Shown here: piece by piece, positions 1,538 through 60,614 of the stretch
Numbering within the stretch: the stretch's first letter is position 1
Layout: every line of letters starts with the position of its first letter
NCBI GenBank assembly: GCA_965204535.1
Contig: CBDBEV010000001.1
Location: 1,792,001-1,856,000, forward strand
Direction of reading: 5' to 3'
Origin: a bacterium
Lineage (GTDB): Bacteria > UBA8248
DNA: 64,000 bases
Translations under genes and position numbers: made by a program
Notes under the pieces: model-generated
Databases searched by the model: none
Seen by the model: the letters and a program-made list of their open reading frames with translations, nothing else
What the model was told of the DNA's origin: nothing

Positions 1538-1753
1538 GGGGTTGTTGAAAAAGCCCCTTCCTCAGGGGAAAAGGCAACCCCCCCTACCCCCCCTTGTCAG
1601 GGGGGCAAGAAAAAACAAAAGCCCCTCTCCCGGCGGCGGGCGTCGCCTTTTCATACCTCCCTCATCAGGGGGGAGAAAAAGCAAAGGCCCCTCAGCCCGG
1701 CGGGTGTGCATCGCCTTTTTATACCCCCCTGACAAGGGGGGGTAGGGGGGGTT
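1538..1753. repeat. IS1182-type end plus C/G-tract inverted repeat (family P)
   Basis: GGGGTTGTTGAAAAA at 1538, then AACCCCCCCTACCCCCCCTTGTCAGGGGGG ... CCCCCCTGACAAGGGGGGGTAGGGGGGGTT (1576-1753). Confidence 0.85.
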
Positions 1754-1822
1754 GGTTTTCAAGGCGAACAGGCGGAATCCGGAGAGTTTGTCTTTGGCCT
1801 TTTGCCTTTCGTCTTGCCGGTT

Positions 1823-2635
1823 CTATCCCGTGGATTCAAATGCCCGCTCCGTCGGGCCGACCGAACTGAGGCCGCAGCGCAGGGCCTCGAGGTTGAACGT
1901 CATCCAGGGGGGCACGTTCCCGATGTTCACGTCGGGGCCGAATTCGGTGAGCAGGAACTTCTGTAGCTCGTAGATGACGTTGTTCGTCGTGCCCTCGATC
2001 CACCAGCCGGGAAGCTCGAAAATCACCTTCTTGACATCCATCTGCCCGCGGATCGAATCGATCAGAGCGCGGTCGGCCGCGCCGCCGGGCATGAGTTCCG
2101 CCGCCTCGAACAGCACCACCGAGGCGCCCGCTTCCATGCAGATGCGGGCTTGTGCGATCAGCTCCGCCGCGTCCTGCTTGCCGGTCTTGGAGCCCACCTC
2201 GCCGTGCACCTCCAGGCCGGCGTCCACCGCCGAGCGCACCATGCGCTCCCTTTCGCCGTCTGTAAGAGAAACGCAGTTGTCTGAAATCTCTATGGCCTCG
2301 ACCCCGTATTCCGCTGCCGCTTCGAAATAGGGCTGAACCCCGCCCCAGCCCTGTGTGGCGAAGATGAACTCCAGAAACTGCCCGCCGATGAAGGGCTTGA
2401 CGTCGTGGCTTTTGAAGAGCTCCAGCTTCTCCCGGTAGTAATCCTCGAGATACAGGCGCGAGGTACCCACCGCGATTTTGCCGAGGTCGATGAACGGCCC
2501 GCTCATCCGAAGCAGCCCCTGTAGATATTCGATGGTCTCCCCCTTGTCGATCATCATGGTGAGCCCGCTGGTTCTTGGTTTTTCCATGCTCCGCTCCGCG
2601 GAGAGGGGAACGAAGTCGAAGGCGAATCCGGCCAT
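1823..2635 (-). CDS. comA: Phosphosulfolactate synthase (ComA) family protein
   Basis: KPRTSGLTMMIDKG, IDLGKIAVGTSRLY, IEISD, EVGSK, VNIGNV, LEALRCGL motifs. Confidence 0.8.
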   Translation of the reverse strand: MAGFAFDFVPLSAERSMEKPRTSGLTMMIDKGETIEYLQGLLRMSGPFIDLGKIAVGTSRLYLEDYYREKLELFKSHDVKPFIGGQFLEFIFATQGWGGVQPYFEAAAEYGVEAIEISDNCVSLTDGERERMVRSAVDAGLEVHGEVGSKTGKQDAAELIAQARICMEAGASVVLFEAAELMPGGAADRALIDSIRGQMDVKKVIFELPGWWIEGTTNNVIYELQKFLLTEFGPDVNIGNVPPWMTFNLEALRCGLSSVGPTERAFESTG

Positions 2636-2890
2636 CTGAGAACTCCTTTCAGACTTATTTTCAATGCTCAGAATTCGGGGCTTCAGTTAATCGCATCATC
2701 CGCGCGGTTGCAAGGATGGGATGGCAAGGGGGCCGCCACTCCCCTTCATTCGACGATCTTCTCAACTGATTAGGCTCCGGGCGGGCGCGACCGTATAATG
2801 CGCCCACACGCCATGCAATCGAAAGCGGGAGAGAGAGTCGTAATACTCGCCCGAGTGGAGAAACGTCCAAGAATCCATGAAGGAGGAAAC

Positions 2891-3904
2891 ATGCCGGATT
2901 TTTCCAGACCCGTATTCATCGTCAGCGCCCCGCGTTCAGGCTCGACCCTGTTCCGGCTCATCCTGGACGCCCACCCGCGCCTGGCGGTGCCCTCCCCCGC
3001 CTGGCTGTATGAAATGGTCTACCCCTACCTCTACAGCTATGGCGACCTCTCAAGCCCTGAGAACCTCGCGGCCCTCGCCGAGGACATCTTCGAGAGTCCC
3101 TTCATCAAGAACATGAAGCTCGACATCACGCCGCAGGACCTCGTTTCCGCCGCTGCCGAGCCTACCTTCCGGGGGCTTTACGACGCGCTCCACCGCCACT
3201 ACGCCGAGAACACGGGCAAGGAGCGGTGGGGCGAGAAATCCCCCCGCAATTCGTTCTGGATGGAGGAGATCAAAGGGGACTTCCCGGATGCGCAGTTCGT
3301 CCACATCGTGCGCGACGGACGCGACATGGCGATCGACATCGCCGATTCGCCCGAGATGCTGCCCGAGAACGTATATTCGGGCGCGCACGTCTGGAAGGAC
3401 TTTACGGGCACCGCGCACGAATCGGGAAAACGCATGGGGGAATCGGATTATTACGTCATCCGCTACGAGGATCTGTGCGCCGAGCCCGAGAGCGAGCTCA
3501 AGAAACTGTGCGAATTTTTGGGCGAGGACTTTGACGGACAGATGCTGGCCCACCACGAGACGGATTCGTCCAAGAGTTGGAGTTCGCTCCCCAACCATGT
3601 GAAGAGCGGGCGGCCCATCTCCACGCAATACTGCGAGATGTACAAGACGCGCCTGCCTGCGGACGACGTATCCGCGCTCGAAGAAGTGATGGGGGATCTG
3701 CTCGTCGAGTTCGGCTACCCGGTGGGCGGGAGCGCGGAACCCATCCCTGAAAAACTCGCGGCCCAGTTGATGGAGAGCGAGATGATCTCAGCACCCCGCG
3801 TGATCGCCTACCGCAAATGGCACGCCGACCGGCGGCGCGAGCGGCTCGAAGAGGGCGTCTGGAAGCTCGAAGAGAGAAAATCCCTCCTGCGCTCTCTTTG
3901 CTGA
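2891..3904 (+). CDS. Sulfotransferase family protein (paralog 1)
   Basis: 5'-PSB loop VSAPRSGSTL, RWGEKSP, HIVRDGRD, RYEDL; AGGAGG RBS before ATG 2891. Confidence 0.9.
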   Translation: MPDFSRPVFIVSAPRSGSTLFRLILDAHPRLAVPSPAWLYEMVYPYLYSYGDLSSPENLAALAEDIFESPFIKNMKLDITPQDLVSAAAEPTFRGLYDALHRHYAENTGKERWGEKSPRNSFWMEEIKGDFPDAQFVHIVRDGRDMAIDIADSPEMLPENVYSGAHVWKDFTGTAHESGKRMGESDYYVIRYEDLCAEPESELKKLCEFLGEDFDGQMLAHHETDSSKSWSSLPNHVKSGRPISTQYCEMYKTRLPADDVSALEEVMGDLLVEFGYPVGGSAEPIPEKLAAQLMESEMISAPRVIAYRKWHADRRRERLEEGVWKLEERKSLLRSLC

Positions 3905-4524
3905 TGGCGGGAAGGCGGCCGGCGGGCCGAAGCCTGCACCCCTGTTGCAAACAAGCAGGACGGCGGCCCGCGATGCCCGGACCTGATGGGGTTGTTGAAA
4001 AAGCCTTTGTCAAAGGAGCAACCCCCCCTACCCCCCCTTGTCAGGGGGGCAAGAAAAAACAAAAACCCCTCTACCGGCGGCGGGCGTCGCCTTTTTATAC
4101 CCCCCTGACAAGGGGCTGTTGAAAAAGTCCCTGCGCACCCCTCGAATGGCGACTGTAGGGGTCAGACATATATGTCTGACCCCGTGGCCGCCCGTCGGTC
4201 GTATTCACCCAGATACAGCAAGGGCGCGAGGGCCACGGACAGGCACGGGGGCCTGTCCCTACAAAACCAACCCCCCCTACCCCCCCTTGTCAGGGGGGTA
4301 AAAAAAGAAAACCCCACAAAAAAAGGATCAACTCCCCCCTTGAGGGTCTGGCTTCCCGAGGGGAAAGCCAGACGATGAAGCCGAGCGGTTTGTGCGAAGG
4401 CTGAATCGGTGGGGGGTAAAATGCGTTTTATCGCCAGTCCGAATTATACCCCCCACCGAATCGCTTTCGGGCTTACGCCCTCAGCTCTTCGTCTGGCTTT
4501 CCCCTCGGGAAGTCAGACCCTCAA

Positions 4525-6037
4525 GGGGCTGTTGAAAAACCCCTGGTTTTATGATCGTATGGAGTTATCCCCCCTCGCCCGAGATGGGAGATTCCCCGAT
4601 GTTGGACCGCAAGAGGCGCGGGCAGATGGAATTGTTCGTGGCCGGTTCGCTGGAGCAGTTGATTCCCGAAGATTACATATTGTTCCGGGTGAACCGCGTA
4701 CTGGATTTGAGTTGGCTTCGCGAGGAGGTGGCGGAGTGCTATTGCGCGGACAACGGTCGACCGGGGATCGACCCGGAAGTGGTGGTGCGGTTGATGCTGG
4801 CGGGTCTTCTGCTGGGCCACGTTCACGACCGGCATCTGCTTCGCGAGGCGCAGGTGAACCTGGCGATCCGGTGGTTCATCGGTTACGAGCTGCACGAGGA
4901 GTTGCCGGATCATTCGAGCCTGACGCGGATTCGCCAGCGGTGGGGGGAGGCGCGGTTCAAGGAAATATTGCGCCGCACGGTTCAGGCGTGCCTGGAGGCG
5001 CAGGTGGCGAAGGGAGAAGTGGTTCACATGGACGCGTCTTTGATACGCGCGGACGTGAGTTGGGAGAGTCTGGCGGCGCGCCACGCGGAGAAGGTGGTGC
5101 GGGAGAACGACTCGGCGGATGAGGCGGGGAAGAAGGGCGGCGGGGGTTCGGGTCCGGTGAGCCGTACGGACCCCGACGCGCGCCTGGCGCGCAAGAGCGC
5201 TCGGGCGGGGTTCGAGCCGAGCTACAAGCACCACGCGGTGGTGGACGACGAGCGGGGCGTTGTCCTCGACGTAGAGGTGACGGCGGGGACGTTGAACGAG
5301 CGGGAGATGATGGAGCCGCAGTTGGATGCGGTTTGCGAGCTCACGGGTCGCGCGCCCGCGGTGGTGACGGCGGATAGTGGTTATGCGTACTCGAAGGTGT
5401 ATGCGGGATTGGAGCGGCGGGGTGTTGATGCGCTGATACCGGCGAAGAAGGAGCCTTCCCAGAGCCGTGTTCCGCTGCAGTTGTTCCGCTACGACGAGCG
5501 GCACAAGGTGGTGAAGTGTCCGGGCGGCAAGACGCTGCGTCCCCGGAAGGAGACGGAGCGGGGGCGCTACTATGGTTCGAGGACGCGCGATTGCGCGGGC
5601 TGCGCGCTGAGGTCGGATTGTCTGCCCAAGTCGCACACGAGCAGGACGGTGCTGATTCCGCATGAATATCCGGCGCTGTTGCGCGCGCGCCGGCGGCACG
5701 CGCGCCGGGGGGAGGAGGAGGGCCGGCTGTGGCGCCGCCACATGTCGCGTTCGGAGGGCTACCACGGCGAAGCGAAGAGTCGGCACGGACTGGGGCGGGC
5801 GGTGCGCCGGGGCCTTGCGAACATGAGGATCCAGGCCTACCTGACGGCGACTGCGGTGAACCTCAAGCGGCTGGCCGCCGCTTTTGCGGCGGATATATTC
5901 GCTCTGTGGAGGGCCTGGGCCGCCCGGAGACGCCGTCTGCGCGCATATCGCGGCCTCACGCGCCGATTGGGCTTCCTATCCCAAGCCGCGTGAGCCGCCA
6001 TACCCCCTGCTTCAAAACAGGGTTTTTCAACAGCCCC
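4525..6037 (+). mobile_element. IS1182-family insertion sequence
   Basis: Perfect terminal IRs GGGGCTGTTGAAAAACCC (4525) and GGGTTTTTCAACAGCCCC (to 6037) flank a single transposase ORF. Confidence 0.9.
4599..5993 (+). CDS. IS1182-family transposase
   Basis: DUF772-like N-terminus (GRPGIDPEVVVRLML, IRWFIGYELHEELPDHSSL), HMDAS, ADSGY, CPGG...CAGCALRSDC, SEGYHGEAKSRHGL. Confidence 0.92.
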   Translation: MLDRKRRGQMELFVAGSLEQLIPEDYILFRVNRVLDLSWLREEVAECYCADNGRPGIDPEVVVRLMLAGLLLGHVHDRHLLREAQVNLAIRWFIGYELHEELPDHSSLTRIRQRWGEARFKEILRRTVQACLEAQVAKGEVVHMDASLIRADVSWESLAARHAEKVVRENDSADEAGKKGGGGSGPVSRTDPDARLARKSARAGFEPSYKHHAVVDDERGVVLDVEVTAGTLNEREMMEPQLDAVCELTGRAPAVVTADSGYAYSKVYAGLERRGVDALIPAKKEPSQSRVPLQLFRYDERHKVVKCPGGKTLRPRKETERGRYYGSRTRDCAGCALRSDCLPKSHTSRTVLIPHEYPALLRARRRHARRGEEEGRLWRRHMSRSEGYHGEAKSRHGLGRAVRRGLANMRIQAYLTATAVNLKRLAAAFAADIFALWRAWAARRRRLRAYRGLTRRLGFLSQAA

Positions 6038-6291
6038 GACAAGGGGGGGTAGGGGGGGTTGCCTTTATCCCCTGAGGAGGAGGGTTTTCAACAGCCCCGG
6101 ATAAGGCGCGCTTGTGCCGCCTCCTTGGATTCACTATCATGGTCGGCATCCATATTTCATGCGAGTCATGCGCCGCTTGAGGAAGTCCGGTCTATTCGTT
6201 TTCTCTTTCGTTGCGAGAAACCACGAATAAAAGGAGCCGAATACACGGAATCGAAACATAATCTGGGAAAACTGCTCATGGAGGAAGCCCG

Positions 6292-7272
6292 ATGTCCAAG
6301 ATCATGAAATGCATCATCGCCTTTGGTGTTCTGGTATCCGTGGGGGTCGTCGATTCAGCCCCGGCTGAAGCGGCCTATCCCGAGCGCGCCATCAACTACA
6401 TCGTCGCCTACAGGGTCGGGGGCGGCTCGGACAGGACGTCGCGCGCCTTCGTTCCCTTTCTCGAAAAGCACCTGGGCAAGGGCGCCAAGATCGCCATCAT
6501 CAACAAGCCGGGCGCGGGCGGCAACATCGGGTTCAACGCGATAGCGAACGCCAAGCCCGACGGCTACACCATCGGCATGACGAACTTCCCCCAGGCCATC
6601 GTCGGCCCCATCATGGGGAAGGTGAAATACACCATCAAGGACTTCGACTTCCTGGGCAACGTGAACAGGGGACCGACGACGTTCGCCGTGCTCAAGACGA
6701 GCAAGTACAAATCGCTGGCCGACCTCATGGCCGACGTCAAGAAGAACCCCGGTAAAATCTCGATAGGCATGGCGGCGCTCAGCAGCGTCCACAGCATCGG
6801 GACCAGCAAGTTCATGGTCAAGACGGGACTTAAATTCAACAAGGTGCCCTTCGGCGGCGGCGGCCCCGCGCGCAACGCCCTGCTCGGCGGCCACGTTCCG
6901 GTGCTGGCGATCTCGATGTCGGCCATCGCGAAATTCAGGGACAAGGTCAACATCCTCGCCCAGGCAGCGCCCGAGCGGGTGGCCATCGGCTCCTGGGTCC
7001 CGACGTTCAAGGAGCAAGGCGTGGACATCACCAACTTCGTCTATCGTCCCGTGGCCGCTCCCAAGGGTGTGCCGGCGCCCATACTGGCGAAGCTGCGCGC
7101 CGCCTTCAAAAAGGCGATCGCGGACCCGGGATTCCTGAAAGTGGCGAAGAAGCAGAAAGTCGCGGTGGAATACACGAGTGGGGAAGAGATGGCGAAGGTT
7201 GCCAACGATTCTCACATGGCCCACGAGCAGCTCTGGAAGACGAATCCCTGGATGAAGAAGAAAAAGAAGTAA
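6292..7272 (+). CDS. Tripartite tricarboxylate transporter substrate-binding protein (TctC/Bug)
   Basis: Signal peptide, YPERAINYIVAY..GGGSD, NKPGAGGNIG, VPFGGGGP, AAPKGVP. Confidence 0.92.
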   Translation: MSKIMKCIIAFGVLVSVGVVDSAPAEAAYPERAINYIVAYRVGGGSDRTSRAFVPFLEKHLGKGAKIAIINKPGAGGNIGFNAIANAKPDGYTIGMTNFPQAIVGPIMGKVKYTIKDFDFLGNVNRGPTTFAVLKTSKYKSLADLMADVKKNPGKISIGMAALSSVHSIGTSKFMVKTGLKFNKVPFGGGGPARNALLGGHVPVLAISMSAIAKFRDKVNILAQAAPERVAIGSWVPTFKEQGVDITNFVYRPVAAPKGVPAPILAKLRAAFKKAIADPGFLKVAKKQKVAVEYTSGEEMAKVANDSHMAHEQLWKTNPWMKKKKK

Positions 7273-7366
7273 GAACCCATCCGGGTCTTCACGTAAGCGA
7301 GAGCGCAAAATCACGAGCAATCCCGAGGCGTGCATAGCCGGTGCGCCTCGGGATCGGGTGAAAGGT

Positions 7367-8149
7367 ATGCCGCAAATCAGCGTCTCGGGAGTCGACCTCC
7401 ACTACGTCGACGAGGGCGAGGGAAAACCCGTATTCTTTCTTCACGGGAACGCGGGTTCGGGGCGCGTGTGGCGAAAAATCACGCCCGAATTCAAAAAGAG
7501 CTACCGCGTCATCGCCCATGATCGCCAGGGGTTCGGTGATTCCGAGAAAAAAGAGAGCGGCGATTTCTCGCCGCGCGGATTCGCAGGGGAACTGGCGCGC
7601 CTGATGGACGCGCTCGATATCGAGCGGGCCCACGTCTGCGGCCTCTCGATGGGCGGCATGATCGCCCAGTGCTTCGCTCTCGATTACCCCGAGCGGGTGA
7701 ACGGGCTGGTGCTTGTGGGGACGATGCCGGACCGCACGGGGCGCAACGTCCCCGAGACGCTGGCCGAACTGGAACGGGACGGATGGCCCGCCGTCGCGGA
7801 GCGCCTCATCGACCACTGGTTCCGGCCGGGCAGCGATGAGGCGGACGTTGCCGAGGCGTATGAGATCGCCCTCCAGTCGCCGCAGAAATTCCGCGAACTC
7901 ACGGTCACCGCGCTCGGGACGTTCGACATCAAGGCGGAACTCCCCGGCATCGAGGCCCCGACGCTGATCCTGAACGGCGAGGCGGACGTCACCAACGTGA
8001 TGGGCCATGCGGAAATCATGAACGAGGGAATCCCGGGTTCGCGGCTCGTGAGGATTCCCGACTGCGGACACCTGATCCCGATTGAAAGGCCCGAGGCGTT
8101 CTGCCGGCACACGCTCGGGTTCCTGGCCGAGGTCGACGCCATGCCGTAG
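7367..8149 (+). CDS. Alpha/beta hydrolase (enol-lactonase-like)
   Basis: FFLHG, DRQGFGDS, nucleophile elbow GLSMGG, GEAD, CGH. Confidence 0.88.
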   Translation: MPQISVSGVDLHYVDEGEGKPVFFLHGNAGSGRVWRKITPEFKKSYRVIAHDRQGFGDSEKKESGDFSPRGFAGELARLMDALDIERAHVCGLSMGGMIAQCFALDYPERVNGLVLVGTMPDRTGRNVPETLAELERDGWPAVAERLIDHWFRPGSDEADVAEAYEIALQSPQKFRELTVTALGTFDIKAELPGIEAPTLILNGEADVTNVMGHAEIMNEGIPGSRLVRIPDCGHLIPIERPEAFCRHTLGFLAEVDAMP

Positions 8150-8220
8150 CAAGAAAAAGGCGCTTTGAAGTTTCGGCCTCATACGAGTTGTCCCTGGCTT
8201 CACTCGCGGGGGAAGCGCAC

Positions 8221-8661
8221 GTGTTCCAGAACCATGACAGAGTCGCCTCCGTAATCTTCTTCTTTGCGACGACTTTCCTCTACTACCACGCCGGGAGCTT
8301 TCCCGAAGAGGCGGCCTTCTACCCGCGAATGGTCATCGGGTTGATGGTCATTCTCTCCGTCCTCATGTTCGTGAAGTCGTGGCTGAAAACCGGGCGGAGC
8401 AGGACCTTCGAGCCGTTCTTCATCCACCACAAGCGGTTCCTCCTGAGCACCCTCATGGCGCTGGGCTACATCGCGGGCGTTCAGTATCTCGGCTACTACA
8501 GCGCCTCGCTGGTTTTCATTCCCGCCGCGGCCTGGGCGCTGGGCTACCGGAACAGGTTCGTCATGGCGGGCACCACGGTCTGTTATCTCCTGTTCATCTT
8601 CGTGGTGTTCGACCAGCTATTCGACCGTCCGCTCACGCAGGAATTTTTCCTGCGCCACTAA
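8221..8661 (+). CDS. Tripartite tricarboxylate transporter TctB family protein
   Basis: Four hydrophobic segments, FYP and LGY motifs; lies between TctC and TctA. Confidence 0.8.
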   Translation: MFQNHDRVASVIFFFATTFLYYHAGSFPEEAAFYPRMVIGLMVILSVLMFVKSWLKTGRSRTFEPFFIHHKRFLLSTLMALGYIAGVQYLGYYSASLVFIPAAAWALGYRNRFVMAGTTVCYLLFIFVVFDQLFDRPLTQEFFLRH

Positions 8662-8728
8662 TGGGGAGTGAAAGCATGGCGCCTGAACACCGGTCTGACC
8701 CCAAAAGCCGGGCCAGGGGAATGAAACC

Positions 8729-10255
8729 TTGATCGAGCCATTTTATAATTCCCTGTGGGTCATCCTCGAGTGGCAGAACATCCTCGCCATGTTCGTGGGG
8801 GTGATCGGCGGCATCATCTTCGGCGCCATTCCGGGCCTGACGGCGACGATGGGCATCGCCCTCTTGATCCCCCTCACCTTCGGCATGTCGCCGCTCATGG
8901 CGCTGGGGATGATGGCCGGCATCCACAACGGCGGCTCCTACGGCGGCGCCATTCCCGCCGTCCTGCTGCGCATTCCGGGCACGCCGGGCGCCATCGCCAC
9001 CACGTTCGACGGCTACCCGATGGCCCAGCAGGGTCTCGCGGAGCGCGCCCTCAAGATCGCGTGCGTCTCCTCGGCGGTGGGCGGCATGGTGAGCGCCGTA
9101 TCGCTGATGACGCTCTCCCCGCCCCTTGCGGAATTCGCCCTGGCCTTCGGTCCGCCCGAGATCTTCTGGATCAGCCTGTTCGGCCTCTCCAGCATCGCCG
9201 TGCTGCTTGGCTCCGACCCCATCAAGGGTCTCATGGCGTCGTGCCTCGGACTGCTGCTGGGCATGGTGGGCCTCGATCACGTAACCGGTTATGAGCGATT
9301 CACCTTCGACACGCTCGAGCTTTCGGGCGGACTGCAGCTCATCGTCATCATGGTCGGGGTGTACGCGCTGCCGCCGGCGTTCCAGATGGCGGAGCGCGCC
9401 ATCATGACCGGCGTGAAATCCAAAGACTTGGAGTTCGAAGGCAAATCCGACATGGCGAACTGGCCGTGGATGCAGATTTTCCCCGCCTGGGTCCGCGCGA
9501 ACGTCATCGGGATCATCATCGGGATTCTCCCCGGCGTCGGGGGCGTCGTCGGCGCCTTCGTCGCCTACAACGAGACCAAGCGCTCATCGAAAGACCCGGA
9601 GAGCTTCGGCAAGGGAAACCCGGTGGGCGTCGCCGTGGCCGAGTGCGCCAACAACGCCGACAACGCCGCCGCCATGATACCCGCCCTCACGCTGGGGGTT
9701 CCCGGCAGCGGGCTGGCCGCACTGATACTGGCGGGCCTGCTCATCCACGGGCTCGAACCCGGCCCGCGCCTGTTCAAGGAAGCGCCAGACGTGGTGTACG
9801 GCTACATGTGGGCGATGCTGTTCACCTCGGCTTCCCTGTTCGTGTTCGGCGGCATCATCGCGACCAAGCTGTTCGCCAACATCCTGCGGCTGGCGCAGGT
9901 GCAGCTGATGCCGGTCATCATCGCGCTGACGGTGGTGGGCATCTATTCGTTCGAGAACAGCATCTTCAACGTCTACCTGATGCTGGGGTTCGGCCTGTTC
10001 GGCTACGCGATGGAGCGGCTGAAGTTCCCCATCGCCCCGCTCATTCTCGGCCTGATACTGGGGCCAAAAGTCGAGTTCAACTTAAGAGTCGCGCTCCGGT
10101 TGTCGCAGGATGACTGGTCGATCCTGTGGACGCGGCCGATCAGCATCGCGCTGATCATATTGACCGCGCTCGTCCTCGCGTATCCGCTGGTTTCCGCCCT
10201 CCTCCGCCGGAACAGGGAGGGGCCTGAGGAGGAGTTCGCCCTGGGAGAGGAATGA
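8729..10255 (+). CDS. Tripartite tricarboxylate transporter permease TctA
   Basis: GAIPGLTATM, GGAIPAVLLRIPGTPGA..TTFDGYPMA, AECANNA, LTLGVPGS. Confidence 0.93.
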   Translation: MIEPFYNSLWVILEWQNILAMFVGVIGGIIFGAIPGLTATMGIALLIPLTFGMSPLMALGMMAGIHNGGSYGGAIPAVLLRIPGTPGAIATTFDGYPMAQQGLAERALKIACVSSAVGGMVSAVSLMTLSPPLAEFALAFGPPEIFWISLFGLSSIAVLLGSDPIKGLMASCLGLLLGMVGLDHVTGYERFTFDTLELSGGLQLIVIMVGVYALPPAFQMAERAIMTGVKSKDLEFEGKSDMANWPWMQIFPAWVRANVIGIIIGILPGVGGVVGAFVAYNETKRSSKDPESFGKGNPVGVAVAECANNADNAAAMIPALTLGVPGSGLAALILAGLLIHGLEPGPRLFKEAPDVVYGYMWAMLFTSASLFVFGGIIATKLFANILRLAQVQLMPVIIALTVVGIYSFENSIFNVYLMLGFGLFGYAMERLKFPIAPLILGLILGPKVEFNLRVALRLSQDDWSILWTRPISIALIILTALVLAYPLVSALLRRNREGPEEEFALGEE

Positions 10256-10284
10256 GCGGGGTGTCGGCTTAAAACAGGGAAAGG

Positions 10285-10857
10285 GGGGTTGTTGAAAAAG
10301 TCCCTCAAGGGGGAGTGGTTTCTCCCGAAGGTTTGTAGGGACAGGCCCCTGTGCCTGTCCGACGTCATGAGGTTGGATATAAACGACGGGCGGGCACGGG
10401 GGCCCGCCCCTACGAAAAATGTGGTTCTGTAGGGGTCAGACATATATGTCTGACTGTGTGTCCTCCCCCCGCACTCGGGATGAGGGTGTTTTTAGTTTTC
10501 CTCACCCTGAGTAGCCGCCGAAGGTCAAACGCGACTGAGAAAGGAGCGTTTGTATCGAAGGATGGAGGCGTCTCCCGGCCGGCGAGAGCAATCGCTTCCG
10601 CATTGGGCGCGATTGACCTTCGATACGCGGCTTCGCCGCTACTCAGGATGAGGCGGTGCGGTTTTGTTCGTCATTCCGGCGAAAGCCGGAATCCATTTGC
10701 GGATGCGCGTGAATACACGGCGGCGTTTCATTCCCCCGCTGATGCGCGGGAACCCTGACGAAAGGCAAAAGGCGTAAAAATGGATTCCGGCTTTCGCCGG
10801 AATGACGGGCAGAAGGCGAAAATCACGCCTTTCTACAGGGACTTTTTCAACAACCCC
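10285..10857. repeat. IS-end-bounded mosaic of palindromic repeats (MITE-like)
   Basis: GGGGTTGTTGAAAAAG (10285) ... CTTTTTCAACAACCCC (10857), enclosing GTAGGG..CCCTAC, CTCACCCTGAGTAG..GTATCGAAGG and CGTCATTCCGGCGAAAGCCGGAATCC units. Confidence 0.82.
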
Positions 10858-10870
10858 GAACGGCGCGGGA

Positions 10871-10899
10871 TTGACCCGGAAAATGTTTGTTTGTATACC
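10871..10899 (+). promoter_or_regulatory. Putative sigma70 promoter for the TRAP operon
   Basis: TTGACC-17 bp-TATACC upstream of the 11173 ORF. Confidence 0.4.
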
Positions 10900-11172
10900 G
10901 GTTGCATACTTTTCATTCATACTGAGGCGTCCTTCCCGGGTTTCAGGAAGGCCGGATTCCCGATGGCGAGGGTTTCACGGCGTCTTTGCGTTTCGCGCAA
11001 GTAAAACCCGGAGCCGAAACGACGCCTCCCGAATCGCGCCGATAACGAGCGCTCATAAAAAATTTTTGAGGGATTGCCGACAACGACGTTATTGAAAATT
11101 CAGAAAATTCGGGAAACGGAATTTTTCGGATTCCTTATCCGGTGAAACACAGACCACACAAAGGCGAAGCCG

Positions 11173-13095
11173 ATGCAGGATAGAGCCGAGGGCGTAGGAT
11201 CCCAGCACAGGAACCTCCCCGATATTCTGGCGAAGATCGTATTCGCCTTTGGAGCCTTGAGCACCGCGTTTCACCTCTACGTCCTCATGGTCCAGCCGAT
11301 TCAGCCCTGGATTTTGCGATCCTTTCACCTGACGTCATCGGGCATCCTCGTTTTCGCACTCATCCCCTGGAGAGCCGACAGGAAAAACGAAGGCCCCAAC
11401 CTCCTGGATTACTCCCTCGCCTTTCTCCTCGTCACGACGACCATCTTCCTCATCGTCGACTTCGACGAGATGCTCTACCGGGTCGGCGTCGACCCCAACA
11501 TCTACGACGTCATTTTCGCCACCATCACGTTCCTCGTCATCCTGGAGATGGGACGCCGCCTGCAGGGATACGTGCTGCCGATCCTCGCCCTCGTCTGCCT
11601 GGCCTATGCGCTGTGGGGCGACTACCTGCCGGGCCTGTGGGGCCACAGGGGCTATCCGTTCCCGCGCACCATCACGTATCTCTTCAGCCTGGAGGGAATC
11701 TTCGGGCCTCCGCTGGCGGCCTCTTCCACCTTCATCATCCTCTTCATCCTCTTCGGCTCCGCTCTTCAGAGCTCGGGCGCGGGGCGATTGTTCATCGATA
11801 CCTCTCTGGCCATCGCGGGCGGCGCGAGAGGCGGGCCGGCCAAGGTGGCGGTCTTCGCCAGCAGCCTGTTCGGCACGATGTCCGGCAGTTCGGTGACGAA
11901 CGTGGTGACGACCGGCACCTTCACCATCCCCCTGATGAAGAGCATCGGCTATCGACCCGCCTTCGCGGGCGCCGTCGAGACCGTCGCCTCCACCGGCGGG
12001 CAACTCATGCCTCCCGTCATGGGCGTCACGGCGTTCGTGATGGCCGAGGTGACCGGCATCCCCTACCTCAAGATCGCAGCAGCAGGCCTCATACCGGCCA
12101 TTCTCTTCTACGTGGCCGTCTATTTCATGATCGGCGTCGAAGCGAAAAACTTAGGGCTTAGCGGTTTGCCCAGGAGTGAACTCCCGCGCCTGTGGGACGT
12201 CCTGCGCCAGAACGGCCACCTGCTTCTGCCCATCTTCGTCCTCATCTACTTCCTGGTCTACGTGCGCGTCTCGCCGATGAAATCGGCCTTTTACGCCATC
12301 GGTGCGGCGGTGGTCGCCAGCTGGCTCCGGCAGGAGACGCGTATGGGGGCGAAACGGGTGGCCGAGGCGCTCTACCGGACGATGGAGGGCGCTATCCACG
12401 TGGCGACGCCCAGCGCCCTGGCGGGCGTGGTCGTGGGCGTCCTGTCTCTCACGGGGCTGGGGCTCAAGGTCACGGACCTGTTGCTCTCCTACGTGGGCGA
12501 CAGCAAGATGCTGGGGCTCCTCGCCGTCATGCTGGTCTCCATCGTCCTGGGGATGGGCGTGCCTACGGTCGCCGCCTACCTCGTCGCCGCAGCCGCCGCC
12601 GGTCCCGCCCTCGTGAAACTGGGGTTTCCGCTCTTGAGCGCGCACATGTTCATTTTCTACTACGCCGTCCTGGCCACCATGACACCCCCCGTGGCGGCTT
12701 CCGCCTTCGCCGCGGGCGCGCTCGCAGGCGCCCACCCCATGCAGGTCGGCTTCATGGCGGTGCGGCTCGGGATCGCCGCTTACATCGTCCCGTTCCTGTT
12801 CGTCTACGGGGATTCGCTCCTGATGCAGGGCTCCTGGGGAGGCATCGCGATGGCGGTCGGCACGGCGCTTTTCGGCGTCTATGCCCTGGCGAGATGCGTC
12901 ATCGACCAGGGAATCGCCCTGTGGCGCAGGGGTGTGCTGGGGGTGGCGGCCCTGCTGCTGATCCTGACCGGCGGCCTGACGGACATCATCGGCCTCGTCG
13001 TGCTCGGCCTGGGGCTGGGGGGCGACCTTCTCGCCTGGTTCCAGAAGATTCGCAGCGGGAAGCAAAAAGAGGACACACTTGAGGAGAGCACATAA
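11173..13095 (+). CDS. TRAP transporter 4TM/12TM fused permease
   Basis: GHRGY, EGIFG, RGGPAKVAV, SGSSVTNVVTTGTFTIPLMK, ASTGGQLMPPVMG, TPPVA. Confidence 0.93.
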   Translation: MQDRAEGVGSQHRNLPDILAKIVFAFGALSTAFHLYVLMVQPIQPWILRSFHLTSSGILVFALIPWRADRKNEGPNLLDYSLAFLLVTTTIFLIVDFDEMLYRVGVDPNIYDVIFATITFLVILEMGRRLQGYVLPILALVCLAYALWGDYLPGLWGHRGYPFPRTITYLFSLEGIFGPPLAASSTFIILFILFGSALQSSGAGRLFIDTSLAIAGGARGGPAKVAVFASSLFGTMSGSSVTNVVTTGTFTIPLMKSIGYRPAFAGAVETVASTGGQLMPPVMGVTAFVMAEVTGIPYLKIAAAGLIPAILFYVAVYFMIGVEAKNLGLSGLPRSELPRLWDVLRQNGHLLLPIFVLIYFLVYVRVSPMKSAFYAIGAAVVASWLRQETRMGAKRVAEALYRTMEGAIHVATPSALAGVVVGVLSLTGLGLKVTDLLLSYVGDSKMLGLLAVMLVSIVLGMGVPTVAAYLVAAAAAGPALVKLGFPLLSAHMFIFYYAVLATMTPPVAASAFAAGALAGAHPMQVGFMAVRLGIAAYIVPFLFVYGDSLLMQGSWGGIAMAVGTALFGVYALARCVIDQGIALWRRGVLGVAALLLILTGGLTDIIGLVVLGLGLGGDLLAWFQKIRSGKQKEDTLEEST

Positions 13096-13152
13096 ACGCA
13101 GGTTTTCACGTGAACCTGGCAGCCTGTCAATCTCACACAGAGGAGAAAGGCC

Positions 13153-14160
13153 ATGAAACTCACCCGCAAGCAGATTCAACCCGTGGTTATTGCGATCATC
13201 GCCGCCTTCGCCTTCGGAGTCGCGTTGTCCGCTCCCGCCGAGGGGGCGAGAAAAGACTGGCCCAAACGCATCACCATCGGCGGCGGGCCGCTTCAGGGAA
13301 CCATCCAGTTCCAGGCGCTGGGCTGGTCCAGCGTGCTGAACAAGGTCTTGAAGCTCAACTCCTCGGTGGAGTCCACGGCCGGTGCCACGGTGAACGCGAG
13401 GCTCATCAGCCAGGGCAGGCAGGACTTCGGCTTCGGGACGAGTTCGAGCATCTCCGACGCCGCCTATCATGGCAGGGGCTTCGCCAAAGGAAAGCGCTAC
13501 AAGAACCTCCGCATCATGTCGCCGGTCGACAGCTCGGGCGTGCAGTTCTGGACGCCTGCGAAAAGCCCCATCATGAAGGCCGAGGACATCCAGGGAAGAC
13601 GCCTCAACATCAGCCGTCCGGGCAGCGGCGTGGACCGCTTCGGGCGCAACCTCATGAAGGTGGTCGGCTTAAAGCCCAGCCAGGTGACCAACGTGGGCCA
13701 CGGCCAGGCGAACCGCATGATGCAGGACGGCATTCTGGACGTCGCCGCCACGATCGGCGCGCCGCCCCATCCCGCCGTCGCCTCCATCACCTCCCAGCTT
13801 CCTTTCCGCGTGTTCGGGCTCGGGCACGGGAAGTGGGCGGAGATGATGCTGGCGAAATACCCGTTCTACGTGAAGACGGCGATCGTCGGCGGCATGTACA
13901 AGGGGAACCCGAAGCCCGTCAAGACCATCGGGCAGACGAACTGGCTCGGCTCGGGCGCGCACGTGCCGAACGACCTCGTGTATGAGGTGGTGAAGGCGAC
14001 ATTCGCGAACAAGAAGGACCTGGTGCTCGCCCACAGGTCGTGGGAAGCCCTGGACATCAACAAGATGACGAAGGCGAACATCCCCGTGCACCCGGGCGCG
14101 ATTCGCTATTACAAGGAGAAGGGAATCAAACTGCCCGAATCGGCCATGATGGCAAAGTAA
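13153..14160 (+). CDS. TAXI-family TRAP substrate-binding protein
   Basis: Signal peptide, ITIGGG..GT, ESTAGATVN, VYEVVKA, IPVHPGAIRYYKEKG. Confidence 0.9.
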   Translation: MKLTRKQIQPVVIAIIAAFAFGVALSAPAEGARKDWPKRITIGGGPLQGTIQFQALGWSSVLNKVLKLNSSVESTAGATVNARLISQGRQDFGFGTSSSISDAAYHGRGFAKGKRYKNLRIMSPVDSSGVQFWTPAKSPIMKAEDIQGRRLNISRPGSGVDRFGRNLMKVVGLKPSQVTNVGHGQANRMMQDGILDVAATIGAPPHPAVASITSQLPFRVFGLGHGKWAEMMLAKYPFYVKTAIVGGMYKGNPKPVKTIGQTNWLGSGAHVPNDLVYEVVKATFANKKDLVLAHRSWEALDINKMTKANIPVHPGAIRYYKEKGIKLPESAMMAK

Positions 14161-14176
14161 AGAGCCGCTTTGGTAC

Positions 14177-14557
14177 GGGGTTGTTGAAAAAGCCCCTCGG
14201 GGTGTGAGGGAATCCCGATCATCGGATTGTTCACCGTAGCGGACAGGCCCCTGCGCCTGTCCGTGGCCCCCGTGCCTGTCCTGACGAAGGACAACCACGG
14301 GAATAGACATCTTCGATAAGGGCGGCCACGGGGGGCCGCCCCTGGAAAAGCAACCCCCCCTACCCCCCCTTGACAGGGGGGTATAAAAAGGCGACGCCCC
14401 CCAACGAGGAGGGTAGAAAAAAACCTGACAAAGGGGGTATGAAAAGGCAACACCCGCCGCCGGCAGAGGGGCTTTTGTTTTTTCTTGCCCCCCTGACAAG
14501 GGGGGGTAGGGGGGGTTGCCTTTATCCCCTGAGGAGGGGAACTTTTTCAACAACCCC
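14177..14557. repeat. IS-end-bounded mosaic (GTAG-type plus family P repeats)
   Basis: GGGGTTGTTGAAAAAG (14177) ... CTTTTTCAACAACCCC (14557); P repeat at 14352-14517. Confidence 0.85.
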
Positions 14558-14572
14558 AGAAAGGAAAGGATA

Positions 14573-16768
14573 GTGCGTCTCCCGGATTGGACGATACAGA
14601 ACTGGACGGATGAGTTGGGCTTCGCCGAGGTCGACCCCGCCGCCGATGCGGTGGCGGGCGAGTTCGGCACGTGGCGGATCCGCTACACGGTGGGCCGCTG
14701 GGGGATAGACGAGCGCGGCTCCATCAAGGTCGCCTTCCGGCAGGTGAGCAACTGGGGCGCGCCGCAGTTCGACGACCCCGAGGGGGAGAACTACACCACG
14801 GTCCGGCTCCATTCCGATTCCGAAGCGGTGCTCGCACCCAGGTTCGAGAGGCGGGGCTACATCCGCCACTGGCGGCAGGCGCTTACCATCGACGTTCTGG
14901 ACGGGTGTCTCTGGGAAGGCGACAGCATCGAGATCGTCCTGGGCGATACGAGTCAGGGAAGCCCCGGCCTAAAGGCGCAGACCTTCAGCGAGAGCAATTT
15001 CGAGTTCAAGATTTTCGTCGACCCCTTCGGCGCGGGGAATTTTCAGCCCCTGCCGCAATCCCCGACGCTCCGGATCAAAGGAGGAGAGGCGCGCCGCCTC
15101 GTCGCCATCATGACTTCAGAAGCCGCCGTCGGCGAAAAGGGATGGCTGCTCGTGAAGGCGGAAGACAGACACGGGAACATCGCGGAAGGCTGCGCCGAGG
15201 AGATTTCTCTCGAAGCCGAGGGCGCGAATCTGGGCCTTCCCGAGGGGTTGCGTTTCGATGCAGACGGGCTCGCGCTGATAAGGACGGGGGAGATTTCATT
15301 CGGGAGCGAGGGCGTGGCGCGCATTCGTGTGAAAGACAGCGCGGGACGCGAGGCGCTCACGAACCCCGTCGTGGTGCGCGAGCGGATAGACGGCCCCCGC
15401 CTGCACTGGGGGGATTTTCACGGGGGCCAGACCGCCGGCACGGTGGGCGTCAACAGCTTCGAGGAATTCTACCGCTTCGCCCGGGACGCGGGCGCGCTCG
15501 AGTTCACCACCCATCAGGGAAACTGTTTCGAGGTGACGAACGAGGACATGGAGGAACTGAAAGAGAAGACCCGCGCCTTCCACGAGCCGGGCCGCTTCGT
15601 CCCCTTCCTGGGCTATGAGTGGTCGGGAACCACCCCGATGGGCGGGGATCACGCCATATTCTTCTTCGATGAAGAGAACGCGATCCACCGCTGCTCCCAC
15701 TGGCTACAGACGGATCTCTCGGACGCCGATACGGATCGCGACCACATCACCAGGCTCCATGCGCAACTGCGAGGCGGGGGAGCGCTGAGCCTTCCCCACG
15801 TGGGCGGGCGTCCGGCGAATCTCGCCTTTCACGACTCCGAACTCGAACCCGTCATCGAGATCCACTCCAAACACGGTATGTTCGAGTGGATGCTCGAGGA
15901 ATCCATCGAGCGGAACATGAAGGTGGGCTTCGTCGGCGGGAGCGACGACCACTACGGCCAGCCCGGCGCCTGTTATCCGAGCGAGGACGTGAGCCATTTC
16001 GCCGCGCGCAACGGCCTGACGGCGCTCTACGCCGGTGAGCTGACGCGGGAATCCATCTGGGCCGACATCAAGGCGCGCCGCTGCTACGCCACGAGCGGCG
16101 AGCGGATTTACCTGCGCTTCACCGTGAACGATAGGTGGATGGGAGAGGAGATCGAGGCGGCCGGGCCCCCGAGAATTTCGGTCGAAGCCGTGGGAACGGG
16201 CCCCATCGAGCGGATCGAGGTGTTCCGCGGGATGACGCGGGTTCATACCGAGAAAATCGCACAGGATCGGGCGGGCAATTGGCTTCGCGTTCTGTTCTCA
16301 GGCGCCAGGGTGCGCGGACGGGGGCGCTCCACCCTGTGGGACGGGCGGCTATCTTTAAGCGAAGCGCGAATCCTTGAAGTCGATCCCGTCGCGCTCGTAG
16401 ATAACCGAGACCGGCTCGACCCAAGCGCGGAATCGGGGGTCTCCTGGAGTCTCTACACAGCGGGAGATTCCCGGGGGTTCAACCTCGAACTGGACGGCGA
16501 TGCGGGCGAGATGGATATCAGCACGGAACACGCGGAACTTCGGGGGAGAATCCGGGACTTTCTCGATAACCCCGCCATGGCGGACGCCGGAAGGCTCGGC
16601 CAGCGGATTGAAGTCGGAAGAACACCTTCGACGGACGGCCCCTGGGAGGCGCGCTTCGAGTATACCGACGACGATGCGCCTTCGGGTCTCAACACCTATT
16701 GGGTCCGGGTGGTTCAGGTGGATCAGGAAAAAGCCTGGAGCAGTCCCGTGTGGGTGAATCTCGCATAA
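14573..16768 (+). CDS. DUF3604 / PHP-like metallohydrolase
   Basis: WGDFHG, GYEWS, PHVGGR, EIHSKHG, GGSDDH, RRCYATSG, AWSSPVW; GTG start after AAGGA. Confidence 0.82.
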   Translation: MRLPDWTIQNWTDELGFAEVDPAADAVAGEFGTWRIRYTVGRWGIDERGSIKVAFRQVSNWGAPQFDDPEGENYTTVRLHSDSEAVLAPRFERRGYIRHWRQALTIDVLDGCLWEGDSIEIVLGDTSQGSPGLKAQTFSESNFEFKIFVDPFGAGNFQPLPQSPTLRIKGGEARRLVAIMTSEAAVGEKGWLLVKAEDRHGNIAEGCAEEISLEAEGANLGLPEGLRFDADGLALIRTGEISFGSEGVARIRVKDSAGREALTNPVVVRERIDGPRLHWGDFHGGQTAGTVGVNSFEEFYRFARDAGALEFTTHQGNCFEVTNEDMEELKEKTRAFHEPGRFVPFLGYEWSGTTPMGGDHAIFFFDEENAIHRCSHWLQTDLSDADTDRDHITRLHAQLRGGGALSLPHVGGRPANLAFHDSELEPVIEIHSKHGMFEWMLEESIERNMKVGFVGGSDDHYGQPGACYPSEDVSHFAARNGLTALYAGELTRESIWADIKARRCYATSGERIYLRFTVNDRWMGEEIEAAGPPRISVEAVGTGPIERIEVFRGMTRVHTEKIAQDRAGNWLRVLFSGARVRGRGRSTLWDGRLSLSEARILEVDPVALVDNRDRLDPSAESGVSWSLYTAGDSRGFNLELDGDAGEMDISTEHAELRGRIRDFLDNPAMADAGRLGQRIEVGRTPSTDGPWEARFEYTDDDAPSGLNTYWVRVVQVDQEKAWSSPVWVNLA

Positions 16769-16812
16769 AATGATGTGGTTTAACCAAGTATGTATCTTGT
16801 GAGGAGAGCGAA

Positions 16813-17691
16813 ATGTGCACCATAGGCGCCGTCGCGACGGCTGACTCAGACGGCAATCCCGTCGCCTTCGCGCTCAAGAATTCGGACTACATGCAGGTCG
16901 GCCACTGGCACGGCTGCATCACCGGAGGGGCGGGCCATGACTTCATGGGCTTCAACACGGCCTCGCGGCCCGGCGTGAACTCCGGCATGAACGAGAAGGG
17001 CCTGGCCGTCATCCGCTCTTTTCTGGACTACCGGGGGCCTTTCGATGAAAAAGACGAACCTGTGAAGGAACAAAAAGACTTCCCGCTCGACGTCGACCGC
17101 CGCAGCGCCATCGCCGCGGGCCTTCTGGAAATCTACGAGACCGTCGAGGAGACGCTCCTCTACCTGCACGACGTGATCCCCAAACACACGGGCAAAGGCA
17201 CCGGACAGCGCGGCGGAAATTTTCTGCTCGCCGACGCGACGGGCAAGGTCGCCGTGCTGGAGCACTGCGAGGACAGAATCGAATCCCGCGTCTATCCGGA
17301 AGGATTCTCGGCGCGCGGGAACAACGGGCGCCTCATCCTCCTGGGCGAGCAGGCCCGGCTGCCCGAACAGGTGCGAGAGGACAGGGAGACGCGCTGCGAT
17401 TACATGCAGACCGCACTGGAGAGGCTTCACGAATCCATCCCCCAAGGGATGAGCAAGGCGGAGGCGCTCGATAGCCTGAAAAGAACCCTCGCCTGGAAAG
17501 GCCCCGAAGGGGACGGGGGCGTGGGTTCGATCTGCGCGGTGGATTTACGCGCCCCCGGAGCGCGGACGAACAGCGCGCAGCCGTGTTCGACGCGCACCGC
17601 CGTCATCTTCGACCTGATAGAGAAAACCATGCACTTCACGCGGGGAAATCCCGACCGATTCCCCTGGGAGACGATGTGCTTCCCCACATGA
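16813..17691 (+). CDS. Ntn-hydrolase (C45 peptidase / choloylglycine hydrolase-like)
   Basis: N-terminal M-C-T nucleophile, KNSD, GMNEKGLA, NFLLADA, RGNP near the C-terminus. Confidence 0.75.
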   Translation: MCTIGAVATADSDGNPVAFALKNSDYMQVGHWHGCITGGAGHDFMGFNTASRPGVNSGMNEKGLAVIRSFLDYRGPFDEKDEPVKEQKDFPLDVDRRSAIAAGLLEIYETVEETLLYLHDVIPKHTGKGTGQRGGNFLLADATGKVAVLEHCEDRIESRVYPEGFSARGNNGRLILLGEQARLPEQVREDRETRCDYMQTALERLHESIPQGMSKAEALDSLKRTLAWKGPEGDGGVGSICAVDLRAPGARTNSAQPCSTRTAVIFDLIEKTMHFTRGNPDRFPWETMCFPT

Positions 17692-17772
17692 AGATGATGG
17701 AATTCAACCGCTCCAACCACACCCCGGAAAGAAACGCGAACGCGCCGGGGCCGTCCTGAGAGGAAGATTTTC

Positions 17773-54271: not shown

Positions 54272-54625
54272 GGGGCTGTTCAAAAACACCATCGAAGAGG
54301 AAGTGCCGCCTGGAAAACCAACCCCCCCTACCCCCCCTTGTCAGGGGGGTATGAAAAGGCGACGCCCGCCGCTGGTAGAGGAACTTTTGTTTTTTCTTGC
54401 CCCCTTGCCAGTGGGGCTTTCTTTTTTTACCCCCCTGACAAGGGGGGGTAGGGGGGGTTGCCTTTCCAGTCTAGAGGGCATCCTTCGATACGGCGCTTGC
54501 GCGCCTACTCAGGATGAGGTGGATAGAGCTTTTTCAACAGACCCCTCAAGGGGGGAGTGATTCTTCTCTCTCGCCGGTAGGTAATATACACTGAATCTCG
54601 AAAGAATGACTTTTTCAACAACCCC
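54272..54625. repeat. IS-end-bounded mosaic (P, CTCAxCCTGAG and Q repeats)
   Basis: GGGGCTGTTCAAAAAC at 54272; right ends at 54544 and 54625; flanks CTCAT / CTCAA / CTTAT. Confidence 0.8.
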
Positions 54626-57099: not shown

Positions 57100-57463
57100 G
57101 GGTCTGTTGAAAAAGGCCTGACTTCGTGATTCGGCGTATAGGGACGACCGGGGAGGGGACTGTAGGGACAGGTCGCGACCTGTCCCTACAGAACCACCGC
57201 GCCAGTCCGTAATCACTCCCCCCTTGAGGGTCTGGCTTCCCGAGGGGAAAGCCAGACGAAGAGCTAAGGGCATAAGCCCGAAAGCGATTCGGTGGGGGGT
57301 ATAATTCGGAATAGCAGTAAAACGCATTTTACCCCCCACCGATTCAGCCTTCGCATAAATCGCTCGGCTTCATCGACTCCCCCTCAAGGGGGGAGTGATT
57401 TTTCTCTCTCGTCGGTCGGTTACATACGACAAATCCAGAGTTCCGGGCTTTTTCAACAACCCC
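57100..57463. repeat. IS-end-bounded mosaic (GTAG plus family Q repeat)
   Basis: GGGTCTGTTGAAAAAG ... CTTTTTCAACAACCCC; the Q repeat at 57214-57397 shares blocks with 4331-4524. Confidence 0.83.
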
Positions 57464-60106: not shown

Positions 60107-60181
60107 ATTGTTGTTTCAGGGCGGGTGAAAACAGGTTCAATAACGGAAGATTCTCACACCGCCCCGGAAAATACAACCGGA

Positions 60182-60197
60182 TGTTTCACGTGGAACA
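60182..60197. promoter_or_regulatory. parS site
   Basis: TGTTTCACGTGGAACA matches the consensus TGTTNCACGTGNAACA. Confidence 0.92.
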
Positions 60198-60224
60198 AAA
60201 TTTCCGCCAAATCCGGGGAGAGAA

Positions 60225-60240
60225 TGTTCCACGTGGAACA
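60225..60240. promoter_or_regulatory. parS site
   Basis: Perfect palindrome TGTTCCACGTGGAACA. Confidence 0.93.
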
Positions 60241-60350
60241 ATGGGGGGTTAGGGATGGGAGGAATGCTCTTCGGTAGTGGGCCGTTCTTGTGAACGGACC
60301 AAGGTCGCGACCTGTCCCTACAGGCTTGTTTGAAAATACACCGGATTGTA

Positions 60351-60614
60351 GGGATTGTTGAAAAAGCCCCTGAGAGGGTAATGGCAACCCCTTGAATACG
60401 AAATCCCATAAAGCCAACCCTCCCTACCCCCCCTTGTCAGGGGGGCAAGAAAAAGCAAAATCCCCTCAGCCCGGTGAGGGCGCATCGCCTTTTTTACCCC
60501 CCTGACAAGGGGGGGTAGGGGGGGTTGCTTTCAAAGAGGGAGGTCGGGGGTTCGCGCGAAAGCGGCCTTCCCGCTATAGGTAATGTCCCTTGGCAGGGGG
60601 TTTTCAACAGACCC
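60351..60614. repeat. IS-end-bounded mosaic with family P repeat
   Basis: GGGATTGTTGAAAAAG ... GTTTTCAACAGACCC; P repeat at 60416-60526. Confidence 0.82.

Follow-up and report, generated by a model that had tools for sequence, protein, structure and literature searches.

How repetitive extragenic palindromes (REPs) spread through bacterial chromosomes has yet to be settled, above all for families with no known transposase, and the footprint left by a transposon is usually read as the record of a single insertion event. Both matters are touched by an insertion sequence (IS) of the IS1182 family, and by short cassettes bounded by the same ends, in the stretch of DNA analyzed here (the window, 64,000 nucleotides, C2:1792001-1856000), which is part of a 4.56-Mb bacterial genome (G000) assembled as two contigs, C1 and C2. 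A 2015 review cited by the papers on IS1272 and TnSha1 reportedly mentions duplication of the target loop. Comparison of the genome with its relatives suggests that the ends behave as fixed slots whose contents are replaced in place.

Several described systems share parts of this pattern. IS1272 and TnSha1 have transposases of the same family and likewise take inverted repeats as targets (PMC5678879, PMC4923244), and TnSha1 is described as using a distant end to mobilize neighboring DNA (PMC4923244). Loop duplication is drawn as a possible IS1182-family pathway in Fig. 13 of PMC5678879, according to which it had been mentioned in a review without detailed data. Near-exclusive insertion into a palindrome family of the host is also known for the REP-targeting elements IS1397, ISKpn1, IS621, ISPpu9/10, and ISRm22 (PMC1525189, the main text of which does not mention IS1182). 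The MITEs (miniature transposable elements with inverted repeats) Correia, RUP, ERIC, and Chunjie are, like the cassettes, short, non-coding, and mostly intergenic, with terminal inverted repeats shared with an IS and target duplications around young copies; IS1182 does not appear in the available text of the two reviews that describe them (PMC10969869, PMC3184786). In the intergenic mosaic elements of Neisseria (NIMEs; dRS3/RS), repeats of about 20 bp flank many short spacer families, and syntenic arrays differ between strains, for which recombination has been proposed (PMC1797815). Finally, the GTAG and CGTC doublets that make up much of the cargo are those of REPs, of REP doublets forming hairpins (REPINs), and of bacterial interspersed mosaic elements (BIMEs) with their REP-associated tyrosine transposases (RAYTs), and here as in those systems a RAYT-like gene lies among GTAG repeats and a small GIY-YIG gene among CGTC repeats (PMC3733652).

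The IS1182 element, its ends and its cassettes

The autonomous element of the window lies between halves of two different palindromes, designated P and Q:

4525-6037, plus strand: complete member of the IS1182 family (1513 bp; terminal inverted repeats of 19 bp), flanked by a Q half-hairpin on the left and a P half-hairpin on the right
4551-5993, plus strand: IS1182 transposase, 480 aa, with DUF772 and DDE domains

The original prediction for this DNA had assigned the repeated ends of the window to an IS1182 element that targets P and Q hairpin loops. The assignment stands: the transposase matches profile NF033551 at 342.7 bits (cut-off 270), and also DUF772 and DDE_Tnp_1_6, and the element has the architecture of the family, with a single open reading frame (ORF) between terminal inverted repeats and multiple copies. 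The genome holds 28 strong matches to the transposase, in copies of 1510-1516 bp. The proposed choice of target is likewise borne out. A perfect 5-bp duplication is found at 19 of 26 facing pairs of IS ends, and all 19 reconstituted targets are P/Q-type sites of C-run, loop, and G-run, so that removal of the IS rebuilds the palindrome, with a fixed point of insertion, as in REP-targeting ISs. This is not the stem-loop replacement typical of IS1272; the other 7 copies are individually unexplained. Near-identical IS copies carry perfect duplications. By this indirect sign the transposase may be active on these ends, and the form that it recognizes would be a hairpin extruded from the DNA, not the palindrome as duplex. 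Three IS copies stand in tandem at C1 164723-169664, presumably because the terminal G-run would rebuild the target at each junction, and two copies have their duplication in common with an upstream cassette end. A second IS has inserted into two IS1182 copies (C2 1235171-1236487 and C2 2823485-2824801), at roughly the same codon in both; it has 15 matches at 25% identity to P0001, with identical scores.

The end is conserved over 15 bp and then fades through a C-rich stretch to about 19-20 bp. At no more than one mismatch it occurs 589 times across the genome, compared with 5 and 9 times in two shuffles of 3-mer chunks. The majority are not in long ORFs: Met-start ORFs of more than 250 aa make up 72% of the genome, yet contain only 81 of the 589. 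All 20 ends predicted for the window (11 left and 9 right) are correctly placed, that at 54272 with one substitution. Other regularities described with them also hold. Facing pairs, put at about 190-570 bp, span 194-573 bp; GACAA, CTCAA, or TTGAG does abut the ends, at 4112, 4525, 6037, 21312, 34569, 34762, 54544, 57100, and 57463; and, of the junctions said to recur, 21323-21437 and 60490-60604 are 93% complementary over 115 nt, while 1538, 6098, and 14557 belong to a single subterminal family. Nor are the ends unpaired and randomly oriented, a pattern that would have spoken against the prediction, as neighboring ends at 100-800 bp form 127 facing pairs and 8 tail-to-tail pairs genome-wide. 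The end's own hairpin is weak (folding at -1.9 to -2.6 kcal/mol); the end as a covarying hairpin was rejected on this folding and on tallies without apparent stem covariation.

Across the genome, 138 adjacent facing pairs spanning 108-669 bp form the cassettes. Their palindrome modules include, besides P and Q, the families GTAG and CGTC, named after PMC3733652, and R, a label coined in the present analysis. These end-bounded palindrome cassettes evidently transpose: a perfect 5-bp duplication flanks 19 of 99 simple facing pairs, compared with 1.85 in permutations (maximum 6), and empty orthologous sites occur for some of them, at C2 2252120 (in G011), C2 239882 (in G016), and C2 2585263 (in G000), G numbers other than G000 denoting related genomes. 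In this the predicted shuffling of repeats holds, and it is presumably the transposase that does the moving. Two other parts of that idea need revision. The remobilized cargo, thought to be P/Q hairpins, comes mostly from other REP families (GTAG in 73 and CGTC in 43 of the 138 cassettes), and the variability ascribed to moving cassettes arises mostly by replacement of interiors in place between persistent ends. The short cassettes are also less strict than the IS in their choice of target: where non-IS pairs have a perfect duplication, the target is of the hairpin type (C-run/G-run) in just 9 of 26, as opposed to 19 of 19 IS copies. Nested insertion is evident from same-direction end pairs less than 700 bp apart (n = 85), in which a hairpin-type flank adjoins the inner end in 69 and the outer end in 34 (background 6%).

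Replacement of cargo at persistent ends

The comparison took in the sites of the window together with some 2.2 Mb of DNA from relatives, chiefly G002, G016, and G011. Of 294 ends in the relatives, 186 were dropped (80 with a flank that fell short of the end, 64 with a repetitive flank, 42 with no match) and 108 were scored. At 84 of these, G000 has an end at the same base, and at 24 it has none (at least one of which is a misalignment). The ends common with G000 enclose a different interior in 54 cases, a partly different one in 5, and the same one in 25, and the share of different interiors climbs with divergence (17/31 in G002, 24/38 in G016, 9/11 in G011). Of the 21 sites that keep both ends, 12 have different interiors next to both ends and 4 next to one only. 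Identity drops to background at end position about 20, and non-consensus variants of the end are common to the genomes at 14 of 49 distinct swapped sites, as compared with 1.9 (maximum 10) in 10,000 permutations. Because variants are shared at a similar rate at swapped (14/66) and unswapped (10/38) sites, the old end usually stays, with change starting at about position 16-20. Inversion of an interior between a cassette's own ends, a separate candidate, was seen in 0 of 39 and was rejected. The slot at C1 688754-690305 shows how far contents may diverge within the same perfect duplication, with 1552 bp in G000, enclosing an ORF of roughly 200 aa, the family of which has 13 tblastn matches in the genome, versus a 247-bp P/GTAG cassette (209-bp interior) in G002.

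The corresponding sites of the window are these:

3988-6098, unstranded: outer cassette (P doublet), recipient of the composite in the next line
4112-6037, plus strand: nested composite of a cassette left end, GTAG/P/Q cargo, and the IS, with a GACAA duplication in a P-arm loop
10285-10857, unstranded: mosaic cassette, 573 bp, with GTAG, R, and CGTC doublets and without duplication
14177-14557, unstranded: cassette, 381 bp, GTAG-like plus a P doublet
34569-34762, unstranded: cassette, 194 bp, with a GTAG-type doublet and a perfect GACAA duplication
54272-54625, unstranded: one-sided product, with a left end, P/R cargo, an inner right end at 54544 in a Q loop, a Q half-arm, and an outer right end
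57100-57463, unstranded: cassette, 364 bp, with GTAG plus Q doublets between Q half-arms
60351-60614, unstranded: P-doublet cassette, 264 bp, of a two-copy family

At 3988-6098, G016 has ends at both boundaries around unrelated CGTC/GTAG cargo. The right boundary of the mosaic cassette at 10285-10857 is common to G002, G016, and G003 and the left one to G016, with interiors partly or wholly different, and both boundaries of 14177-14557 are the same in G002 (same cargo) and in G016 and G003 (unrelated cargo). The 34569 cassette has as its counterpart in G011 a Q-doublet cassette inside the same GACAA duplication, and 54272-54625 has a rare end variant in common with G011 despite different cargo. 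The site of the 57100 cassette holds a P cassette in G002, a tandem pair of cassettes in G016, and a bare Q doublet in G034. The left boundary at 60351 is common to G016 (similar cargo) and to G011, G003, and G014 (different cargo). In the composite, the whole segment 4112-6037 is bounded by GACAA but the IS alone (4525-6037) is not, boundaries that fit either a collapse or a composite jump.

How old ends come to hold new cargo is rather probably a matter of nested insertion followed by deletion between same-facing ends. The IS1182 transposase would move cassettes in trans, and a new cassette would jump into a hairpin inside an old one, leaving two same-facing ends in direct repeat. Ordinary direct-repeat deletion between these ends, or between REP arms, would remove the old cargo and leave the new cargo joined to the flank and the end of the old cassette. 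As the end starts with a G-run, every insertion would rebuild the target at its junction, which could account for the tandem arrays. New cassette families would arise as ends come to bracket chromosomal REP doublets, themselves presumably spread by RAYT, GIY-YIG, and DUF559 proteins.

One-sided products, in which a non-hairpin left end is combined with an inner right end in a P/Q half-hairpin, number 24. They match the outer duplication within one mismatch in 6 cases (two perfectly) and the inner one in 2, a modest outcome for a strict test of three-end sites. The segment at 54272-54625 is the one-sided product that nesting and collapse would predict. An intermediate and its collapsed product are both seen at C2 210772-211085, where G016 has a new cassette with its left side merged with the variant-marked old end, while G000 retains as a tandem the 24 bp that are single in G016 and the end variants are shared; this is the only clear and convincing pair.

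Several observations weigh against this account. Tandem intermediates paired with collapsed products were found in only 2 of 22 comparisons between genomes, one of them convincing, with a chance expectation of 4.4% per comparison. The prediction that solo ends agree with the outer duplication failed for the loosely defined three-end clusters of G000, of which there are 29: only 2 showed such agreement, as opposed to 16 with agreement to the inner duplication, so that most such clusters are simple nested insertions. A P/Q loop and arm directly follow only 4 of 589 ends, and excision of solo ends, tried as a general source of ends by way of its footprint (the outer 5-mer repeated just inside the end), was rejected at 8 of 589 with 7.8 expected. 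The relatives are kin and several sites recur, and the counts are thus not counts of independent events; moreover, the 186 ends that went unscored are a majority of the 294. Finally, several mosaic junctions fall in shared REP arms without an inner end (10285, 54272), and the excess of two-sided over one-sided swaps (12 versus 4) is more simply explained by conversion in one step.

Such ectopic gene conversion is a serious rival and a possible, if less than likely, explanation. A break inside a cassette, made for example by a REP nuclease or by hairpin cleavage, would be repaired from another cassette through homology of the ends or of shared REP arms, and the cargo replaced at once. Two-sided swaps, the commonest paired outcome (12/21), would then be expected, as would the retention of old-end variants and old duplications and the position of mosaic junctions in shared arms. 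About 590 potential donors are at hand, and RAYT, GIY-YIG, and DUF559 genes are present. Set against this is a homology of only about 19 bp per side, which is below the length efficient for RecA, and conversion accounts neither for the preference of the inner ends of tandem pairs for hairpin-type flanks nor for the intermediate-product pair at C2 211085. Nesting with collapse and conversion may both operate.

A transposase that replaces rather than nests, with an incoming element attacking a resident inverted-repeat structure or two separate hairpins, is improbable. Precedent comes from IS1272 and TnSha1, members of the IS1182 family described as deleting target stem-loops (PMC5678879, PMC4923244); the 7 of 26 IS copies without a perfect duplication, several of them flanked by halves of different hairpins, and the lack of a duplication at most cassettes would also accord with it. 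Replacement of this kind would nevertheless remove the old ends, the variants of which persist about as often as at unswapped sites, and the IS normally makes its 5-bp duplication (19/26).

Independent insertion of different cassettes at one hot spot in each lineage, without any swap, is very improbable and, except at P/Q sites, largely refuted. Some shared sites are indeed P/Q loops, the preferred target (57100), and repeated independent use of a single hairpin has been reported for TnSha1 (PMC4923244), but hairpin-type flanks are found at only 9 of the 49 swapped sites, leaving 40 without, many sites lack a duplication in any genome (14177), and the sharing of rare end variants noted above would be unexpected. 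Misjoining of contigs at the 19-bp ends is scarcely credible, even with genomes that are probably all repeat-rich metagenome assemblies, since swaps are present in the single-contig genomes G002 and G011 and scale with divergence, and since both junction regions of 14177-14557 are present in contigs of other studies (which break within the cassette, so that none spans it whole).

Cargo, distribution and neighboring loci

Recognizable palindrome modules are present in 136 of the 138 cassettes; besides GTAG and CGTC, P is found in 37, Q in 29, and R in 19, with 58 mixed, and 61 of the 138 carry P/Q targets. The cassette arms sort into 57 subterminal types, with 79 singletons besides. Clustering of interiors (at least 80% identity) places 54 cassettes in 15 families and leaves 84 unique, so that the prediction of contents differing between copies is right for the latter but not for the former. 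The interior of the IS has only 3 short matches in the genome besides IS copies and split copies, and an origin of the cassettes as internal deletions of the IS is unsupported, their interiors not being IS-derived. Like MITEs, the cassettes are short and transposase-less, with the terminal inverted repeats of an autonomous IS, and a minority show a target duplication or an empty orthologous site; a homogeneous family or a parent-IS interior is not found. They are MITE-like in mobility without being one classical family.

The cargo itself has the features of REPs and REPINs, namely inverted doublets and, for each repeat, a gene among its copies that encodes a candidate cognate nuclease or transposase. 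In the genome, GTAG repeats surround a Y1_Tnp (RAYT-like) ORF, CGTC repeats a 119-aa GIY-YIG ORF, and P clusters a DUF559 gene; in relatives, one of two DUF559 score groups is flanked by P and the other by Q. By this association the palindromes likely have other sources, in the Y1_Tnp, GIY-YIG, and DUF559 genes. About 29-53% of each palindrome family is free of ends and 24-41% is enclosed by facing pairs, yet such pairs enclose only 1.1% of the genome. The only DUF559 gene of G000 (C2 1233580-1233994) is sandwiched by P clusters with an IS1182 copy in each side. The RAYT-like ORF (C1 983505-984117) contains GTAG repeats in frame and has further ones flanking it, and upstream of it lie roughly 64-bp tandem repeats (C1 983060-983290). 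Three larger end-bounded segments with matching 5-bp flanks (C2 2472911-2476659, C1 1142485-1143981, and C2 781119-782357) contain ORFs of 247-785 aa and are candidate composite transposons with MITE ends.

The transposase was found in 13 of 23 genomes of the genus. Neither a transposase match nor an exact end was found in G001, G007, G009, G010, and G015; G016, G003, G005, and G032 also gave no transposase match, but these assemblies are fragmented, and G016, G003, and G005 have many ends. By eye, P copy number shows no clear relation to end number across the genus (21 P and 452 ends in G014, 432 and 274 in G012).

Two further loci of the window contain ends without a partner:

1538-1760, plus strand: unpaired left end with a P cluster, adjoining a synteny break
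21312-21520, plus strand: left end lying in a Q loop, with a P doublet after it and its partner end lost, and with an older degenerate end at about 21160

In G002, window 1-1526 is joined to window about 20220 onwards, and the sites at 1538 and about 20200 may mark rearrangements. The block 1825-19981, the left edge of which adjoins the unpaired end at 1538, is located elsewhere in G002, G016, and G003; a cluster of phosphosulfolactate synthase, sulfotransferase, and tripartite tricarboxylate and TRAP transporter genes occupies 1823-19976. The window also has parS-like palindromes of the TGTTCCACGTGGAACA type (60190-60243 and 60670-60698), which lie upstream of the parA-gidA region and, belonging to an 80-bp direct repeat region, are duplicated to the left and right of the 60351 cassette.

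Other phyla and known systems

In species genomes the 19-bp end was found in at least 129 stretches, and many of the 80 listed are labeled 'bacterium' or Nitrospinota/Nitrospinaceae. The loci examined from other taxa number 26. In about 11 of them, belonging to Bacteroidales, Planctomycetota, Hydrogenedentota, and Verrucomicrobiota, a facing pair of 90-230 bp surrounds palindrome doublets or repeats, and 5-bp duplications are seen at some; five such genomes have 4-46 exact ends each. The same end surrounds quite different local doublets in L099, L127, and L157 (Bacteroidales), in L104, L125, L144, and L164, and in L112, L141, L143, L152, and L161. That IS1182-type ends are a cross-phylum carrier of REPs independent of RAYTs, with the transposase exchanging cargo at resident end pairs, is a bolder proposal and a doubtful one. 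If true, it would provide a second route of REP dispersal, serving CGTC and DUF559-type repeats too, and natural cassette-exchange slots, occasionally for a gene, at hundreds of fixed chromosomal sites.

Doublets of five REP families ride here between DDE transposon ends, some with duplications and empty sites. In about two thirds of the cases with an end in both genomes, the contents of orthologous footprints are unrelated, so that the scoring of MITEs by presence or absence can mislead. With no more than one transposase, an end of 19 bp, and a target of roughly 20 bp, the system can be reconstructed in a laboratory strain, and REP carriage and the reading of footprints are thereby directly testable. 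The system also supplies detailed data on the loop-duplicating target choice of IS1182.

A literature search, the coverage of which excluded supplements, ISfinder notes, and most subscription papers, found no report of IS1182-ended cassettes that carry REPs or of cargo replacement between fixed IS ends. Compared with IS1272 and TnSha1 as described in PMC5678879 and PMC4923244, the IS studied here duplicates a 5-bp loop rather than deleting a stem, inserts into specific repeat families, and is accompanied by hundreds of non-autonomous ends. REP-targeting ISs use the REP as target only in the account of PMC1525189, whereas here REP doublets also ride between the ends. Unlike the reviewed MITEs (PMC10969869, PMC3184786), the cassettes combine dozens of arm types with cargo of other families, have interiors that are not IS-derived, and possess ends that outlast their cargo. 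In NIMEs (PMC1797815) the dRS3 repeat is itself palindromic, is linked to the GIY-YIG nuclease Ssn (PMC11893778), and is not a DDE transposon end; the brackets of the present cassettes, in contrast, are IS ends with a weak hairpin of their own rather than self-palindromic repeats, with target duplications around young copies and boundaries kept to the base. The components of the system are of known kinds, and it is their combination that is new, above all the in-place refilling of persistent pairs of transposon ends.

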